Positions 32,329 through 39,398 of a stretch of 64,000 nucleotides of DNA are shown here, piece by piece (positions within the stretch are counted from its first letter, which is position 1; each line of letters opens with the position of its first letter). Source of the DNA: Candidatus Poribacteria bacterium (GTDB lineage Bacteria > Poribacteria > WGA-4E > WGA-3G); the NCBI GenBank assembly GCA_963665235.2, contig CAXXLX010000001.1, forward strand, positions 3,744,001 through 3,808,000, written 5' to 3'. The notes under the pieces are model-generated. The model did no database searches. It was given only the letters and a program-made list of their open reading frames with translations, and had not been told where the DNA came from. The translations under genes were made by a program, and so were the position numbers.

Positions 32329-32680
32329 CTGCTATTTCTCCTGATGCAGGCTACATGTGCTTTGTATATTAGCAAATGGCGATTAGCAATTTGGCAATTG
32401 GCAATTGGCAAGAGAAGAAAGAAAAGAAATATAAGAGAAGAAACCTCTTTGTTTTCTTCCTCTTGCTAAAGGTTTCCATAGGTTTCCAACTGCCATTGTC
32501 GGATTGGACTTCGTTCAACCCAACCTACAAGGACAGCTAAGTAGCAACTTGAGTTATATTAGCAGATTAAAAAAAATGTGTCAAATGAAAATTAAACGGA
32601 CTATAAAATTATGCTTGCAGGAAAATTGGAGGTGTGTTATTATCGATTAAAATCACATCCGTAAAGTTGGAAAAGTCGCT

Positions 32681-34627
32681 ATGCATATCCAAGGGCACAA
32701 TCACAAGGCTGCGTACCACACCGTCGTATCTACTCCCAACGGCAGAATTGGCGAGCTACGGCTTAGCACAAATAACCGTAAACTGACTACACCCGCTATT
32801 TATCCTGTTATCAGCTTCCTGACCGGGACAAGTCCACGTGGCGGGGGCATCTGGAAATATCTCCTCCGCGATTTTATGCAGCGTGACTATCAGATGTTGT
32901 CACAGGTCCTGCACTTTCTGGATTTTAACTTCACCGGAAAATATCTCGCGAACTGGCGGAAAAAGTCGATGCGGGAAAATTACCGCGAACAGAACGGTGA
33001 TTACAAAGGTACCCTCTTTTTGGATTCAGGGGGATTCAAACTCCTTTACAATGCTGGTTTAGAATTGTCGGAATTCGGAATTCATAAGGAGACAGAGGCG
33101 GACGATATACTCGCTTTGCAATTAGATTTTGGTGGGGATATCGTTGCCTCGTTGGACTACCCGCTTCCGCCAAATCTGGTACGTGCCGAAGCTGATATCC
33201 GTATGGCACAGAGCTTGCAAAACGCAATCCGAGCTGCAGAACTATTGACCGACAAAGCAGATAAACCTCCGTATCTTTATATCTGTTGTCATGGACAATC
33301 TCAAGAGGATATCAGCAATTATACCGCTCAAGTCTTCGAACAGGTTGGCGATAAATTGCCCTCCTTCGGTCTTGCTGTCGGGTCGCTTGTGCCGCTGCGG
33401 GGACGCGACGATTCAGCTGTTATGGAACGTATCCGAGGGGTTGTCGAGGCAATACCGGAAGCGCGTCGTGACACTACGCCTATTCACGCGTTCGGAGTCT
33501 CTGGGGTGCTGACACCTGTGCTTGCATACCTTGGCGTGGATAGCTTTGACAGCACTACCTATATCCAAACTGCACGCAGCCTGTTTTATGCACAACCAGA
33601 CACGCAGCGAAAACTCAAAATCCTTGAGATGGATACGATAACTTGTGATTGCTACGTCTGCCAGCAATACCCGCTTGACGAAATGCAACAAGCCCTGATG
33701 GAAGAACAGAGTTATCAGGTCACGTCAACTGGGAAGTATAAGAGCGAATACTATGCGGCGATTGCCCTACACAATTTTGAGATGGAAACCCGGATGCTTG
33801 CGGAAATGTGTGAAGGGATTCAGGCAGATGACGCAGTGGAAGCGTTGGCAGAACACATCGGCAAATATCAACACAACCGCGGCACCCACGAAGCGATAGG
33901 GTGGCTTGCCGAAAACGATACTGAACTGGGAATTCGATTGACCCGCACCTTAATTCATAACCCAACACGCAAGGAAAAGATTTTTCGCGACCCAAATCAG
34001 TTGGAGCTCTTCTCGCTGGACTATGAGACCCCTGAAAATGCAACGACGCTTATAGCGGAAGATGCTACGGAGACCATCTCATTATCGTATACCCCCGATG
34101 ATTTTAGTGTTCCTGCCGATTACGAACCGCCTGCCGATAAAAATATACTTTTGGTGATTCCGTGCGCGGGAAAGAAACCGTATTCCCTTTCACGAACACA
34201 CACGATTGTTGCTAAAAAATTAGTAGCGGTTTTCGGGGAAAAACAGCAGCATATCCACAAGGTCACACTCTCCGGACTCTATGGCCCTGTTCCAGCAGAA
34301 TTTGAGACCGAGGAGGCGGTCACACGCTACGATTTTCAGTTGTCTCCGCACAACGGTGCACAAATTGAGCTGTGTACGAAACGATTACTCGCTTATCTCG
34401 AAAAATATGGCACGTCTTACACGTTATGTGTCGGTTATGCAACGAGCAGGGCATATCGGGAGGTAATGTCCCTCGCTGAAAAGCGGTATAGACGGTTCAT
34501 TTTAATGCCGAAATCGTTAAAACAGAAACGGTTGTCTGAATTCTTTAGACACGCCCATTTGGATGCTTTGGTTGAATTGATACAGGAGAAGGGGGAAATT
34601 GAAGGCAGTGACAGCACAAGCGAATAG
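32681..34627 (+). CDS. tRNA-guanine transglycosylase-family domain fused to an ArcS/DUF5591-like domain
   Basis: LDSGGF, LDYP, HAFG, DSFDS and CDCYVC...H motifs; C-terminal IPCAGKKPYSLSRTH...SGLYGPVP. Confidence 0.85.
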   Translation: MHIQGHNHKAAYHTVVSTPNGRIGELRLSTNNRKLTTPAIYPVISFLTGTSPRGGGIWKYLLRDFMQRDYQMLSQVLHFLDFNFTGKYLANWRKKSMRENYREQNGDYKGTLFLDSGGFKLLYNAGLELSEFGIHKETEADDILALQLDFGGDIVASLDYPLPPNLVRAEADIRMAQSLQNAIRAAELLTDKADKPPYLYICCHGQSQEDISNYTAQVFEQVGDKLPSFGLAVGSLVPLRGRDDSAVMERIRGVVEAIPEARRDTTPIHAFGVSGVLTPVLAYLGVDSFDSTTYIQTARSLFYAQPDTQRKLKILEMDTITCDCYVCQQYPLDEMQQALMEEQSYQVTSTGKYKSEYYAAIALHNFEMETRMLAEMCEGIQADDAVEALAEHIGKYQHNRGTHEAIGWLAENDTELGIRLTRTLIHNPTRKEKIFRDPNQLELFSLDYETPENATTLIAEDATETISLSYTPDDFSVPADYEPPADKNILLVIPCAGKKPYSLSRTHTIVAKKLVAVFGEKQQHIHKVTLSGLYGPVPAEFETEEAVTRYDFQLSPHNGAQIELCTKRLLAYLEKYGTSYTLCVGYATSRAYREVMSLAEKRYRRFILMPKSLKQKRLSEFFRHAHLDALVELIQEKGEIEGSDSTSE

Positions 34628-35801
34628 GGAAATTCTGAACTATTTTTTACCGCCACGTATTGAATTCGGGGCAGGGGCCATCGCCAATTTAGGGAAACAC
34701 GTGAGGGCTTTCGAGGGTGAGAAGCCGCTTGTCGTTAGCGATGCGGGTCTCCGTGAAGCGGGAATATTGCGTCAAGCTGTTGCTCCCTTGGAAGCGGCAA
34801 ATCTACACTACGCCACCTATACGGAGATTGAACCGAATCCTACAGATGTGAGCATCACGCCGGGGGTTGAGGTCTATCGGGCAGAAACGTGTGATGTCAT
34901 CATCGCTGTCGGCGGGGGGAGCGTTATGGATGCTGCTAAAGCTATCCGCCTTTTGACTACGCATGACCCGCCACTGGCACCCTATTATGTGGACTCGGGT
35001 GGTGTTAGCCGGATACGCGACGATATGCCGCCGCTTATCTGTGTGCCGACAACAGCTGGCACGGGTAGTGAAGTGTCACAAGGCGCGGTGATTACGGATA
35101 CCTCACGGCAGACGACGAATCGATGGCGGAAACGCGCCTTTGTTACGCCTTTCAACATGGCGAATCTCGCTCTTCTTGACCCGATATTAACGGTTGGGAT
35201 GCCTCCGATGTTGACCGCTGCTACCGGCATGGATGCGATTACGCACGGAATTGAGGCTTATGTGGCGACAAAATATCACCCTATCGCTGAAGGTGTTGCG
35301 CTGATAGCCTTAAGAATGTTGGGCGCGAATATCCGAAAGGTGTCCCACGATGGCGAAGATGTTGTTGCACGCGGGGAGATGTTGCTCGCAGCATGTATGG
35401 CAGCGTTCGCATTTCAAAAAGGACTTGGGGCTGTTCACTCAATTGCACATCAGTTATCGACAGAAGCCCCTATTCCGCACGGTGTAGCGAACGCTATTCT
35501 GTTACCGCATGTCATGACGTTTAATTTGCCTGCCGTAACTTCGAAGTATGCGGATATCGCTGCGGCGTTGGGCGTTAATACCGCGGGTATGTCCGCAGCG
35601 GAGGCGGCGCGCGCGGCAATTGATGAAATCCGGGAATTAAATGTGCAGCTGAATATGCCCGCAGGTCTGGGTGCGGCAGGCTTGGCAAAGGCACGACTTC
35701 CGAAAATAGCAGCGGATTCTATGCTCGATCACTGTTATAAATTTAATCCAAGACCGTGTACGGAACAGGATATGCACAATCTGCTTGTGGCAGCATTCTG
35801 A
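34599..35801 (+). CDS. Iron-containing alcohol dehydrogenase (start 34599 or 34608)
   Basis: GGGSVMD, PTTAGTGSE, GMDAITH and HGVAN motifs. Confidence 0.94.
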   Translation: MKAVTAQANREILNYFLPPRIEFGAGAIANLGKHVRAFEGEKPLVVSDAGLREAGILRQAVAPLEAANLHYATYTEIEPNPTDVSITPGVEVYRAETCDVIIAVGGGSVMDAAKAIRLLTTHDPPLAPYYVDSGGVSRIRDDMPPLICVPTTAGTGSEVSQGAVITDTSRQTTNRWRKRAFVTPFNMANLALLDPILTVGMPPMLTAATGMDAITHGIEAYVATKYHPIAEGVALIALRMLGANIRKVSHDGEDVVARGEMLLAACMAAFAFQKGLGAVHSIAHQLSTEAPIPHGVANAILLPHVMTFNLPAVTSKYADIAAALGVNTAGMSAAEAARAAIDEIRELNVQLNMPAGLGAAGLAKARLPKIAADSMLDHCYKFNPRPCTEQDMHNLLVAAF

Positions 35802-35845: not shown

Positions 35846-36247
35846 TACCATTTTTATTAATTATTCTATCATTACCGGTTGTTAGAAATGAAACGGAGAA
35901 CAGCACAAACTGGAAGTTTATGCTACAATAAAGAGCACAAACTGGAAGTTTATGCTACAATAAAGAGCACAAACTGGAAGTTTATGCTACAATAAAGAGC
36001 ACAAACTAAAAGTTTATGCTACAATAAAGAGCACAAACTAAAAGTTTGGCTCATGTTAAAGATGTGTGCGATTGTTCTAATAAACGCAATGGCCACAAGG
36101 GTTAAATTTTCTTATGCACTTATTCTTTACATGAGCCAAAAGTTTATGCTACAATAAAGAGCACAAACTGGAAGTTTATGCTACAATAAAGAGCACAAAC
36201 TAAAAGTTTATGCTACAATAAAAAGACATTTTCAATTAGAAATGGTA
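35846..36247. mobile_element. MITE with TACCATTT ends carrying 7 x 32-bp REP hairpin units
   Basis: TAA|TACCATTT...AAATGGTA|TAA; unit AGAGCACAAACTRRAAGTTTATGCTACAATAA. Confidence 0.85.
36048..36137. mobile_element. 90-bp MITE (IS1595-like ends) nested in the fifth REP unit
   Basis: TIR GGCTCATGT...ACATGAGCC; 8-bp TSD AAAAGTTT at 36040-36047 and 36138-36145. Confidence 0.9.
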
Positions 36248-36765
36248 TAACTTTGGACAATTCAAGGGGATAGGTGGAAGGGTGGAAGATTAGATTTCGT
36301 GTTTTTTGTCTGAATCGCGGATTATCGCGGATTACACGGATTACGCGGATTTTTTTAAGGTGTGTATGCGTCAAGGTTTTGTGATTAAGTTGCGTTTTTT
36401 TGTCTGTCTGAATCGCGGATTACACGGATTTGGCAATTAGCAATTAGCAAGAGAGGTATTCTGAACCCTCTGACGCGCGTCAAAGCGTTGATTAGAATTA
36501 CAACATCTTGCCATTAGTTTCCATAAGCCAATCGCCATAAGCCAACATTCTATAAACATTCCGCCCCGCTGGGGCTGCGCTTTGGCACAATTAAACGAAT
36601 TGCTGCGACACAGACAGACACTTCCGCTTGCATAGAACAGACACACCCGGGCTGTAATAAGGATATACCAGAAAAATCGCCCCAAACTCACAACCGGAAT
36701 TACATTGTCCGCTATCAGGCGATAGCGGTGCAAAGTGAAGTAGTTTTCAATAAGGAGAATTTGAC

Positions 36766-37536
36766 ATGTCTTTTTTGAAAAATAACGCCTACTGGATTGT
36801 TGCTGTCGTCATCGGGTTGGGCATATCGGTTGTTATGCTCTCACAACGCGGAGACCGAGAATCTGTCTCGCCTCCCTCAAAGGCGATTGAGACACATAAG
36901 CAGCCAGAAGCTATTTCACACCCCACTCGACAAACCGGTGAAGCGTACACCTATCCCGCCGCACGTCCACTGCAAAGACCCGATAGCATCACAGACCCCG
37001 AAGTCAAAGCGGCTTGGGACCTTGTGGAATCTCTCAAAACGAATATTTGGGACTATGGCGGACAACCGACCCCCCGAGCGACCGAACTGATAGACACATT
37101 GATGCCACCGCCTGACAGGTTTCGGGGTGAAACCGCACACGATGACGTTGAGGTGACATTGGAATTGCTGTCCGAACTTAGCGGGTTTCGCGACCCACGC
37201 GCCGCCGTCGTCTTCGCAACGTATGCTGGCGAAGGCATCGTGAGCGGGCATAGTTTGAAGCAGGCATTGGTAGAGATCGGACCCCCTGCTATTCCTTACA
37301 TGCTTCCTTACATAGAACCGCCGTATAACAGATTTGAAAAAAATCCACTGGAAATCATTCATGCGTTAGGTCCTATTGGCGTGCAACATCGCGAGGAATT
37401 AGAAGGTGTGATCAAACACATCATCATCCCAAAATTAGAAGCATTTATTGAAGCAGAACACACGATGCTAATGTTTTTGCCTTTAAAATATGCATGTGAG
37501 TCGCTATCGATGCTGGAAAAGGAGGAAAGCAAATGA
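36766..37536 (+). CDS. Membrane-anchored hypothetical protein (helical, HEAT-like)
   Basis: SD AAGGAG; N-terminal TM segment; ALVEIGPPAIPY; ATGA overlap with the next gene. Confidence 0.75.
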   Translation: MSFLKNNAYWIVAVVIGLGISVVMLSQRGDRESVSPPSKAIETHKQPEAISHPTRQTGEAYTYPAARPLQRPDSITDPEVKAAWDLVESLKTNIWDYGGQPTPRATELIDTLMPPPDRFRGETAHDDVEVTLELLSELSGFRDPRAAVVFATYAGEGIVSGHSLKQALVEIGPPAIPYMLPYIEPPYNRFEKNPLEIIHALGPIGVQHREELEGVIKHIIIPKLEAFIEAEHTMLMFLPLKYACESLSMLEKEESK

Positions 37537-39398
37537 AAGTTATAACGTTTTGTGTTTCTGTATTTTTATTCATATTTTGTGTTTTCACATTCAACTCCGT
37601 GACGGGTGGCGGTGTTGAGCCGGATCTGATTTTCACGTCGTGGCAAGCCGGTCAAGGGGTCAAAGGGGGCCCTTCGGATGCCAAGGATTTTAAGGAGGTT
37701 TGGAAGACCTTTATTACCGATACAGAGACTACTTGTAAACTGAATGTGACGGTAGGGTATGCCAAGAAGCAACCCGCGAACGCGTATAAACTCCACAGAT
37801 ATGAGTGGGAAGTGACCGCGGACATATTGCATCCGGGTTTGCCAAAGGCAGAGCTGAAGAAGCAGATTTTTAGATTTGTCGGTAAACAATCACAAGAAGG
37901 TGACACCGGTAACACGGGCACGACTTTCCGCTACTCAGGCAACGGCACGCTTTCTGAACATTGGCATCCAACGGGGACTGATGAAGAGAAGCAAACATAC
38001 TGTGTCAATTACGAAGGCAATAAACAGCCTCAGAGGGGCAGAAGTCTGAGTATCACTGTGAAATTTATCGGCTACTATGGGACTGACCCGAACGACGAAA
38101 AGAAAACAGAAATCGAGCTGCCGTTGGCAACAGATATAACAGATCAGATGCGGCAGGAGTATTTGGATCAGAAACGTTTGGTGCCAGCCCGCGGTGAATT
38201 TTTAGACGATCCGGGCAATAAGTCTCCGTATAATCACGGACACTATGAAAAACTGATGGATGGTGGTTTAGCAGCGTACCGTCTCGCTTGGTTAGCGAAG
38301 TGTAATGAACTTTGGCGGCAGTGTAGTGAATCTCATAATTGCACACATAATAAAGTTGTAAATAAAAAAATCAAAATCGTTTGTAAACCTCCGAACTGTC
38401 CGGAAAAAGGGTGTACTCATAAAGCAATCGCTAAGTTAACGTTGGAAGACTTTGAGATTAAGAGTGCGTATCGGCATCCACATCACAATGATTATCATGC
38501 GGTAGGGACCGCACTGCATGGGCTGCATCAGTATGGATACGCCTTAGATATAACGACTCCCGATATAGATGGTGATGGCAAGCCAGAACAGGTTAAAAAT
38601 GATAGGGCGAGCAGTCCAGATGGTGCCGCAATGTCGGACGCAGCCTACGCAGCGGGTGCTGATTGGTGTCGCTCTTGGGAAAAATATAAGACCATTACAC
38701 ACGCGGATTGGCGTTTTGATTATAAAAAGGCTGTGGGTGCGAAAAACTGGCCCCCGGCGATCAATTCGTCAGGGCAGTTGTTATCCAAGACATCGCCTGA
38801 AGACTCAACACCGACAACACCCCCCAACACGCCGACCCCCACACCGATACCTACGCCCACACCGACACCGACACCCCCATCCACGATTACTTATGCCTGC
38901 TCTGTGCATTCAGGGGGAGAGAGCGGAGCGAGTTCTCATGTGTGGAGTAGTGCACCGTGTGGAGATGCAACCCACGCGGGGTATCTGTGCCAAATCAACG
39001 CATCAGACCATGAATGGGTGTCCGAGAGTTGTCCATCGTTGCATGCACACTATGAATGCGATGGGACAGACCATTCATTGCAAGCTTCTTGTTCTGTCAC
39101 CAATTCGCGCGGAGATACCTGCACGGTGACGAGCTTCTATGCATGTGCGTCGCATACGCATCAGTATCCTGCCCGGTGTGCACGAAGTGCATGTGCACAA
39201 ATCGTGAGTCACCGGTTAGAACATCGCCAGACCTGTAGTGCCGGACATACGTATTGGACCTGCATTTCGGGAGCGACACATGACCATACGACCGTTTTCA
39301 CGTGTCGGCGTCCCGGGTGTGGTGTGACCTTCACGCGGTGTATCAATGGCATCTGTATTAGCAATGTCGGGACAAGGCCGTGGCATTGGGCGCAGTAG
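37533..39398 (+). CDS. Secreted protein: peptidase M15-like domain, PT linker and Cys/His-rich tail
   Basis: Signal peptide; SAYR...HQYGYALD...HAD; PT repeats; many Cys and His residues at the C-terminus. Confidence 0.7.
   Translation: MKVITFCVSVFLFIFCVFTFNSVTGGGVEPDLIFTSWQAGQGVKGGPSDAKDFKEVWKTFITDTETTCKLNVTVGYAKKQPANAYKLHRYEWEVTADILHPGLPKAELKKQIFRFVGKQSQEGDTGNTGTTFRYSGNGTLSEHWHPTGTDEEKQTYCVNYEGNKQPQRGRSLSITVKFIGYYGTDPNDEKKTEIELPLATDITDQMRQEYLDQKRLVPARGEFLDDPGNKSPYNHGHYEKLMDGGLAAYRLAWLAKCNELWRQCSESHNCTHNKVVNKKIKIVCKPPNCPEKGCTHKAIAKLTLEDFEIKSAYRHPHHNDYHAVGTALHGLHQYGYALDITTPDIDGDGKPEQVKNDRASSPDGAAMSDAAYAAGADWCRSWEKYKTITHADWRFDYKKAVGAKNWPPAINSSGQLLSKTSPEDSTPTTPPNTPTPTPIPTPTPTPTPPSTITYACSVHSGGESGASSHVWSSAPCGDATHAGYLCQINASDHEWVSESCPSLHAHYECDGTDHSLQASCSVTNSRGDTCTVTSFYACASHTHQYPARCARSACAQIVSHRLEHRQTCSAGHTYWTCISGATHDHTTVFTCRRPGCGVTFTRCINGICISNVGTRPWHWAQ

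Follow-up and report, generated by a model that had tools for sequence, protein, structure and literature searches.

In the routes known so far, 7-deazaguanine bases are put in place by one set of proteins (Tgt, arcTGT, or DpdA with or without DpdB), while their side chains are worked on by another (ArcS with RaSEA, Gat-QueC, QueF-L, DpdC). Here we describe a gene that may unite both steps in a single polypeptide. It lies in a 64,000-nt stretch of DNA, the window in what follows (C1:3744001-3808000, C1 being contig CAXXLX010000001.1), of the sponge symbiont Candidatus Poribacteria, whose metagenome-assembled genome (MAG) comprises 5.31 Mb in 4 contigs and is 92.6% complete. Its 648-residue product, called the fusion protein below, joins a transglycosylase barrel of the TGT family to the DUF5591 domain of archaeosine synthase (ArcS).

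Canonical ArcS consists of a TGT-like Nt domain, the domain C1 (DUF5591 with the motif PCX3KPYX2SX2H), C2 and PUA, according to two papers (PMC10516641, PMC5699537). The Nt domain is split off in some organisms, and phages keep the C1 core alone, as ArcS2 (PMC10516641). ArcS transfers lysine to 7-cyano-7-deazaguanine (preQ0) and accepts substrates down to the preQ0 nucleoside and its 5'-monophosphate (PMC11298593). For the arcTGT of P. horikoshii, Asp95 and Asp249 are named as catalytic residues and the pair Val197/Val198 is tied to preQ0 specificity (PMC5699537).

Similar chemistry is described for DNA. In the Dpd system of Salmonella Montevideo DpdA requires the ATPase DpdB to insert preQ0, DpdC then makes the amide ADG, and DpdD-K restrict (PMC10164549). 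Vibrio phage nt-1 manages with less: its DpdA2 alone leads to preQ0 in E. coli plasmid DNA (dPreQ0) without any ATPase, and DpdA2 together with the DUF5591-only ArcS2, whose motif is reported to be slightly degenerate, leads to G+ in the same DNA (dG+; PMC10516641). A further relevant family is DUF6884, which is defined by the motifs CxxxK and LSAxxG, is related to the DNA-binding protein YaaA and is predicted to flip bases (PMC11701544).

How does the Poribacteria protein compare? Pfam assigns it a TGT domain (PF01702; residues 107-396, E 1.7e-17, 64 bits against a cut-off of 26.3) and a DUF5591 domain (PF17884; residues 480-602, E 2.4e-13, 50.6 bits against a cut-off of 26), and no PUA, TGT_C2 or other Pfam family at E<=0.01. 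The initial annotation, made from the letters of the stretch, had proposed a bacterial TGT fused to an ArcS-like domain. Much of this stands: the motifs DSGG, LDY, DSFDS, CxCxxC...H and PCAGKKPYSLSRTH all lie where it had placed them, the linker it saw between the domains is disordered in the AlphaFold2 model, and PUA is indeed missing. Just 46 residues follow the DUF5591 match, modelled as nothing but helices, so there is no space for C2 and PUA.

The joining of a TGT-like to an ArcS domain is in itself nothing new. Since canonical ArcS runs Nt, C1, C2, PUA, the layout is ArcS-like minus C2 and PUA; the ArcS proteins of Euryarchaeota, for example of Thermococcus kodakarensis and Methanocaldococcus jannaschii, already have the same TGT-like N-domain followed by C1/DUF5591 with the same motif. 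What appears to set the fusion protein apart, besides its bacterial host, is that it retains the full set of TGT catalytic residues but lacks C2 and PUA. Canonical ArcS has presumably lost its transglycosylase residues, and its TGT-like half would merely bind the substrate. The distance is also seen with the ArcS model NF040592 (archaeosine synthase subunit alpha), which matches in two stretches at 84.9 bits against an equivalog cut-off of 440, the best stretch aligning residues 480-604 to model positions 288-406.

A second correction concerns the type of the barrel, which is archaeal (arcTGT-like) and not that of bacterial Tgt. The arcTGT model TIGR00432 (tRNA guanosine(15) transglycosylase) scores 82.7 bits over residues 104-387 against a cut-off of 350, the bacterial model TIGR00430 (tRNA guanosine(34) transglycosylase) 30.5 bits against 306.75, and the DpdA model NF041059 17.8 bits against 200; the sole NCBIfam cut-off passed is that of the superfamily model tgt_general (66.1 against 47.6 bits). 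No PADLOC family, DpdA included, matches the protein at E<=0.01. A profile of the family finds P. horikoshii arcTGT (1iq8) at E 5.4e-34 along the full catalytic domain (profile positions 4-415), TGTs of bacteria and eukaryotes at about 1e-11 to 1e-13, AF0587 at 2.9e-12 and the solved DpdA 7ui4 at 7.8e-4 only. The top ranks in Foldseek are likewise archaeal arcTGTs (1j2b, E 4.2e-20; 1iq8, E 1.2e-19), followed by bacterial and eukaryotic TGTs. The N-domain thus has its best match in sequence and fold in arcTGT and shares its zinc site, but the protein has neither C2 nor PUA and carries a DUF5591 domain.

The C-terminal domain is of the ArcS/DUF5591 type by three measures: the Pfam score given above, a domain profile that finds AF0587 (2q07) at E 2.2e-13, and the fold, for which 2q07 is the single PDB match at E<=0.001 (E 1.1e-5, 153 columns). 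The AlphaFold2 model, computed from a 44-sequence family alignment, has two folded domains at a mean pLDDT of 90.5 and a pTM of 0.89, and the C-domain modelled alone reaches a pLDDT of 91.7. In a viral fold library the model matches a 464-aa uncharacterised TGT-like protein (E 8.5e-10) and a DUF5591 protein (E 5.2e-5) of Vibrio phage nt-1, which, going by species and domain names, we provisionally take to be DpdA2 and ArcS2. The pairing of a TGT-family transglycosylase with a PUA-less DUF5591 core is then the same, but in the phage these are two separate genes, whereas the fusion is one chromosomal polypeptide with a canonical motif. At the sequence level tblastn found no match to the fusion protein in phage records, and viral contigs gave just two weak partial matches to the TGT part at 23-25% identity.

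Proteins of the DUF6884/YaaA cantaloupe fold (PF21818, PF03883), of which those with DUF6884 are small and stand alone, belong to Pfam families of their own, but have CxxxK and LS[AG]xxG in common with the C-domain. The similarity is weak in pairwise comparison: BLASTP of the C-domain against the DUF6884 protein of the same genome gives E 3e-4, and a DUF6884 protein from one of the gene islands described below also matches DUF5591, at E 9.8e-5.

Conservation was measured in the alignment of 44 family members at 29-71% identity to the query. D115, S116, G118, D159, H269, D290, H364 and N365 are invariant (44/44), and each of the zinc cysteines C322, C324 and C327 is kept in 43. Aligned to 1iq8, the set of a TIM-barrel TGT is complete, with the catalytic Asp pair, the Cys3-His zinc site and the putative substrate Asp, D159, which would bind the base as its counterpart does in other TGTs. 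V237 aligns with Val198 of arcTGT, while Leu236 stands in place of its Val197. The second site is retained to a similar degree: C495 and S504 in 41 sequences, K499 in 42, P500 and Y501 in all 44 and H507 in 34 of the ArcS motif, and S531 in 42, G532 in 43, G535 and P538 in 44 of the LSGLYG region. Both active sites are thus under purifying selection, and this is the main reason why we read the protein as bifunctional. The positions of these elements are collected in Table 1.

Table 1. Features of the fusion gene and of the gene that follows it; positions are those of the window and residues those of the fusion protein.
Feature	Position	Strand	Evidence
TGT-DUF5591 fusion gene, 648 aa, stop TAG	32681..34627	+	ORF (open reading frame) listing, Pfam, AlphaFold2 model, contigs of two studies
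N-terminal arcTGT-like transglycosylase domain, residues 1-430: barrel, zinc subdomain, helical C1-like segment	32681..33970	+	PF01702, family profile, Foldseek
DSGG, residues 115-118; D115 = counterpart of catalytic Asp95, P. horikoshii arcTGT	33023..33034	+	1iq8 alignment
LDYP, residues 158-161; D159 = putative substrate-base-binding Asp	33152..33163	+	aligned to LDIP of 1iq8
DSFDS, residues 287-291; D290 = counterpart of catalytic arcTGT Asp249	33539..33553	+	1iq8 alignment
CDCYVC, residues 322-327, zinc-site cysteines	33644..33661	+	aligned to CSCPVC of 1iq8
LHNF, residues 363-366; H364 probably fourth zinc ligand	33767-33778	+	
Inter-domain linker, disordered, residues 432-460	33974..34060	+	pLDDT <50
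C-terminal ArcS-C1/DUF5591 domain, residues 461-648, alpha/beta fold	34061..34624	+	PF17884, 2q07 fold match, domain profile
PCAGKKPYSLSRTH, residues 494-507, = ArcS signature PCX3KPYX2SX2H, includes CxxxK	34160..34201	+	
LSGLYG, residues 530-535, counterpart of DUF6884 motif LSAxxG	34268..34285	+	conservation; BLASTP vs the genome's DUF6884 protein, E 3e-4
Fe-dependent alcohol dehydrogenase (Fe-ADH), 3' of fusion gene	34599..35801	+	PF00465 + PF25137

A two-step mechanism would follow the logic of insertion and subsequent nitrile conversion known from Dpd. In the first step, suggested by the conserved residues, the arcTGT-like barrel (Asp290, Asp115, Cys3-His zinc) would swap a guanine within a polynucleotide for preQ0, supplied by the cell's own QueC, QueD and QueE-type genes. 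In the second, proposed because ArcS and phage ArcS2 are homologous to it, the DUF5591 half would take the inserted 7-cyano-7-deazaguanine into its CxxxK...LSGxxG pocket and join an amine to the nitrile. This would give an amidine, either archaeosine-type G+ or a lysine adduct, in contrast to the amide of Dpd. The initial annotation had foreseen one polypeptide that inserts and modifies a 7-deazaguanine in tRNA or DNA; residue conservation and family context make this the best-supported reading, and we regard a two-step modification of a polynucleotide as likely. The least certain part is the target, for which DNA has about an even chance and tRNA distinctly less. Taken as a whole, the proposal of a single-polypeptide two-step 7-deazaguanine modification enzyme with DNA as its most likely target is made tentatively, at a confidence a little below even.

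Does the cell have the means? Genome-wide family searches, of the kind the initial annotation had suggested for tgt and queCDE, found a separate canonical Tgt (C1:2609893-2610933, 544 bits to PF01702), so that the fusion gene is neither the genome's only tgt nor its canonical one. They also found QueA, QueF, a tandem QueD, a QueE-like radical SAM protein (77 bits, under its subfamily cut-off) and QueC at C1:3470074-3470720. The latter is split over two frames (135.5 and 106 bits), which could be an assembly indel or a real pseudogene. Another TGT paralogue, to which we return below, was found as well. All these genes lie outside the window, in agreement with the view that the fusion gene has no que or dpd neighbours.

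The fusion protein has many relatives. A word-indexed search that scored 8000 candidates returned 491 clusters at E<=0.001; the 120 clusters listed all carry PF01702 and PF17884, at 59-100% identity. An exhaustive search of representatives gave 568 proteins at E<=0.001, of which 101 reach E<=1e-30, many of them 600-700 aa long and matching end to end at 30-47% identity, and stand-alone halves exist too. None of 10 remote representatives reaches the ArcS cut-off. In a protein atlas, clusters with both domains occur in Bacteria, most commonly Chloroflexota, and in Methanobacteriota, which we regard as a lead only. By these searches the protein belongs to a large TGT-DUF5591 family without a curated name. 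We found no description of it in the literature, although supplements of 7-deazaguanine papers that list ArcS homologues may mention it. One odd representative, P0238 (418 aa), has an N-terminal TnpB-like fragment ahead of a DUF5591 domain with intact motif, and may be a chimera or a mis-called gene.

Which polynucleotide would be modified? The gene neighbourhoods across the family are informative here. An alignment scan of metagenome contigs gave 243 relatives, 80 of which were kept; together with eight named loci they yielded 81 full-length loci in 60 groups at 90% identity, with the window excluded. Neighbours were annotated on one representative each and counted per group, and in 11 of the 60 groups the flanks add up to less than 3 kb. 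The most frequent neighbours are a GHKL-type ATPase of about 517 aa (27/60 groups), a second, TGT-only paralogue of about 414 aa (24/60) and DUF6884 proteins, with weak matches to DpdC, YaaA and DUF5591 as well (21/60). DpdJ-like helicases (11/60), DpdK-like PLD proteins (10/60), QueD and QueC (9/60 each), QueE-like radical SAM proteins and large STAND/AAA proteins (8/60 each), members of the preQ0 transporter family YhhQ/Vut_1 (5/60) and HerA (3/60) follow, and 20 groups have none of these. At one locus, L046, the neighbouring proteins have 1202, 639, 1374 and 716 aa.

Counted over the 61 non-redundant rows of the family, 35 lie in such an island setting, with preQ0 genes, DpdJ- or DpdK-like genes, GHKL ATPases, DUF6884 and extra TGTs. 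Many of the islands are probably haloarchaeal. Two megaplasmids of cultured haloarchaea (Haladaptatus sp. YSMS36 and Natrinema sp. SYSU A 869) carry full-length homologues at 34-35% identity amid DEAD/DEAH helicases and AAA/ATP-binding proteins, and the island on the Haladaptatus plasmid also has genes for PLD and DUF6884 proteins and for additional TGTs. Islands that combine two TGTs, a GHKL ATPase, DUF6884, preQ0 genes and DpdJ/K-like genes have apparently not been described before. That distant members of the family sit in Dpd-like DNA-modification islands tilts the target towards DNA.

A tree of the 61 rows (quick maximum likelihood, LG+G4, SH-aLRT support only, midpoint root, so that the root itself is not inferred) places the window's protein in a clade of 11 rows with a support of 98, made up of the Poribacteria copies and relatives at about 50% identity, which have an ABC transporter, sigma-70 and Lon next to them. 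Island features occur in none of these 11 rows. The sister group and deeper branches hold loci linked to YhhQ, QueD, HerA, DpdJ/K and STAND proteins, and in the other large clade 27 of 30 rows are of island type; the long branches L061, L064, L080, L100 and L110 are unreliable. The solitary state may be derived from the island state. The Poribacteria copy would then be a stand-alone, orphan descendant of enzymes that work in Dpd-like modification-restriction islands elsewhere.

Eight close relatives in named genomes all come from Candidatus Poribacteria MAGs. Upstream genes vary among their loci, and two of them (L006:3942-7253 and L007:1181-4543, which probably represent one lineage) have, directly upstream and in the same orientation, a gene for a protein of about 1100 aa with HKD(PLD) and Snf2 domains. 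This protein scores 273-279 bits to the PADLOC candidate C3a139 and stays far under the cut-offs for DrmD, DpdE and anti-phage PLD. In that lineage, the HKD+Snf2 and fusion genes could be a two-gene modification-restriction pair.

Within the phylum the gene is found in 54 of 176 genomes, 44 of the 133 high-quality ones and 15 of 31 genera. Its occurrence differs strongly between groups, with 0/40 in one genus and 12/65 in another, 9/11 and 25/29 in two other families. Most matched genomes have an unbroken frame of full length, with 53-71% identity between families, and in a few it carries a stop or is split. This pattern fits vertical descent with many losses.

DNA is favoured as the target by the islands around distant members, by the HKD+Snf2 gene next to the fusion gene in two loci and by the absence of C2 and PUA; the nt-1 phage enzymes, the relation of the C-domain to DNA-binding proteins and the patchy occurrence of the gene point the same way. 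Other observations weigh against this interpretation: closeness to arcTGT, solitary vertical inheritance and the lack of ATPase or restriction partners. The barrel is far nearer to the tRNA enzyme arcTGT than to DpdA 7ui4 (E 5.4e-34 and 7.8e-4). Identity tracks taxonomy, at 64-71% within the same family, 57-65% within the same order and 53% within the same class, which agrees with a cellular function passed on by vertical descent. The gene stands alone among housekeeping or metabolic genes both in the clade of the window's protein and in the relatives at about 50% identity. In the genome we found no DpdB (the best match, at C1:1807667-1808392 and 2 Mb off, has 44.6 bits against a cut-off of 300), no GHKL ATPase partner (best partial match 20.5 bits) and no restriction-type gene adjacent to the fusion gene, the homologues of the HKD+Snf2 protein being 29-37% identical and far from it.

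In this 92.6%-complete genome TIGR01210, taken here as the model of RaSEA, the radical-SAM partner that ArcS needs to finish G+, has no match, so that the RaSEA-like gene looked for on the suggestion of the initial annotation did not turn up by this model; 3 of 14 control genomes score over its cut-off, and the matches include all three methanogen and haloarchaeal controls. The preQ0 supply is not fully certain, given the split QueC, the incompleteness of the genome and the lack of any YhhQ match in it: if QueC is truly a pseudogene, preQ0 would need another route.

If DNA is the target, how would the enzyme be used? It is conceivable, at a confidence well below even, that Poribacteria and their relatives in the solitary clade modify their own chromosome with dG+ or a preQ0-lysine adduct by means of this one self-sufficient polypeptide, with neither an ATPase nor a cognate restriction activity, as an orphan mark of epigenetic or protective kind.

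The alternative that survives best is a tRNA enzyme, a bacterial one-protein counterpart of arcTGT plus ArcS that would place preQ0 elsewhere than at position 34 and turn it into an archaeosine-like base. We consider it possible, though less probable than the reading with DNA as the target. For both halves the nearest relatives of known function act on tRNA (arcTGT 82.7 and ArcS 84.9 bits, against 17.8 for DpdA), and genes for tRNA modification typically stand alone among housekeeping genes. The clade of the window's protein is solitary with housekeeping neighbours, its identity pattern is vertical, and no ATPase or restriction partner is present in the window's genome. ArcS, moreover, takes substrates as small as the preQ0 nucleoside and 5'-monophosphate (PMC11298593). 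On the other hand, the RNA-binding domains C2 and PUA of arcTGT and ArcS are missing, and only 54 of 176 genomes of the phylum have the gene, with the genera at 0/40 and 12/65. The distant members in islands of DNA-modification or defence type belong to archaea that presumably have arcTGT and ArcS for their tRNA already. Archaeosine is not known from bacterial tRNA.

Much less probable is that the protein acts on free preQ0, its nucleoside or its nucleotide, in salvage or small-molecule biosynthesis, perhaps together with Fe-ADH or an aminotransferase. The idea draws on the gene's surroundings: Fe-ADH lies 3' of it in 4 of the 8 named Poribacteria loci, and in the other four, more distant ones (L009-L012, about 10.3-13.5 kb) a class-III aminotransferase, a cyclophilin and a KamA-like (lysine-2,3-aminomutase-like) radical SAM protein are encoded downstream. 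A YhhQ-family gene is adjacent in 5 of the 60 groups, and the small substrates of ArcS mentioned above (PMC11298593) would suit such a role. These partners differ by subclade and are absent from the wider family, however, in which no genes typical of biosynthetic clusters recur. Base exchange by enzymes of the TGT family takes place in polynucleotides, and all the catalytic residues that it needs are invariant here. The KamA-like neighbour is of possible interest as ArcS uses lysine, but may be plain synteny among related genomes.

Slightly less probable still, and in our view unlikely, is a protein in which only the DUF5591 half is catalytic, the TGT-like half binds the substrate and preQ0 is inserted elsewhere, for example by the third TGT of the genome. 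This would agree with the layout, which equals Nt and C1 of ArcS, and with the presence of that further arcTGT/DpdA-like paralogue (398 aa, C1:1786065-1787264). The (near-)invariance of D115, D159, D290, H364 and the zinc cysteines in 44 sequences would be unexpected for a pure binding module, however, and the third paralogue co-occurs with the fusion gene in only 11 of its own 21 genomes, against 54 genomes with the fusion.

The third paralogue forms part of an operon on the minus strand (C1:1786065-1791325) that encodes a DUF6884 protein (147 aa), a hypothetical protein, a PIN-like protein (359 aa), a second hypothetical protein, a BrxC/D-like P-loop ATPase (389 aa) and the TGT-like protein itself, and that resembles the DUF6884-TGT-ATP-binding trio of the Haladaptatus plasmid. 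The paralogue is found in 21 of 176 phylum genomes, and its identity is flat at 63-71% across families, save for two outliers (32%, a fragment). A functional link of the fusion gene to this operon was considered and rejected on the co-occurrence in 11 of 21 genomes and the flat identity. The operon is probably an independent, mobile system, and may be a second, mobile 7-deazaguanine system. The 44.6-bit DpdB/ParB-like match sits about 20 kb from it.

Least probable of all is a functionless remnant left behind by the loss of a defence island, which would fit a solitary gene that is patchy in the phylum and has a frameshifted allele on a haplotig, but is contradicted by the full-length frame in most matched genomes at 53-71% identity, the invariant catalytic residues, a gene intact in two independent datasets and, weakly, RNA-library contigs that overlap it.

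These datasets come from independent sequencing studies. Among Logan contigs, one of dataset X1 is identical to the gene over 32689-34623, and one of dataset X6, over 32603-34837, spans the Fe-ADH junction with 62 substitutions and zero gaps, so that the reading frame is uninterrupted in both. Contigs of two metatranscriptome libraries, both from one study, lie across parts of the gene (32761-33152 and 33398-33601); they share variants of the same study's DNA run and are weak evidence, DNA carry-over being possible. The contigs of these RNA libraries (X7, X9) leave 33602-34627 uncovered, which says nothing on transcription of the 3' half. The frameshifted allele, split into 353 and 281 aa, is carried by contig C4 (17,070 bp), a haplotig about 99% identical to C1:3774884-3794300 with an extra multi-copy insertion sequence of about 1.25 kb. 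Another haplotig is contig C3, which corresponds to about C1:999-1033 kb, and the two probably contribute to the genome's contamination figure of 5.65%.

Read joints that skip the fusion gene and Fe-ADH (32546>35842 in X1, 32413>35843 in X6) were rejected as repeat artefacts because of their short sides (20-24 nt) and because both ends lie inside high-copy repeats. A tandem unit of about 32 nt at 35880-36300 (and about 32350-32500) has about 700-840 copies genome-wide and causes huge depth spikes and false joints in read mapping. A second repeat, with about 30 copies, lies 5' of the fusion gene.

The initial annotation also held that the gene is translationally coupled to Fe-ADH. This is plausible: the first in-frame start of Fe-ADH is a TTG at 34599, preceded by GGAGAAGGGGG, which gives an overlap of 29 nt, and the gene order is kept in 4 of 8 Poribacteria loci. 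Fe-ADH is probably co-transcribed with the fusion gene, with no evident functional tie. The nine neighbouring ORFs scanned by Pfam include a sulfatase, three PhyH proteins, a GFO/IDH/MocA protein, Fe-ADH and two without assignment. None of the nine is a helicase or PLD gene, no family search for dpdC-K having been made genome-wide; the window-wide Pfam tally covers 25 of 113 families and is no proof that defence genes are absent. Farther downstream, at 37533-39398, a Cys-rich protein of 621 aa with a Thr/Pro-rich linker and no Pfam match is preceded by a membrane-anchored protein of 256 aa, likewise without a match.

What would such an enzyme mean for the field? With both active sites retained, such a fusion would make a compact and portable two-step modifier. 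It lends itself to testing whether an ArcS core can finish an amidine without RaSEA, and G+-type bases in the DNA or tRNA of bacteria may come from it. Should tRNA turn out to be the target, this would be the first archaeosine-like modification of bacterial tRNA. The wider family, in turn, marks a set of apparently undescribed Dpd-like islands.

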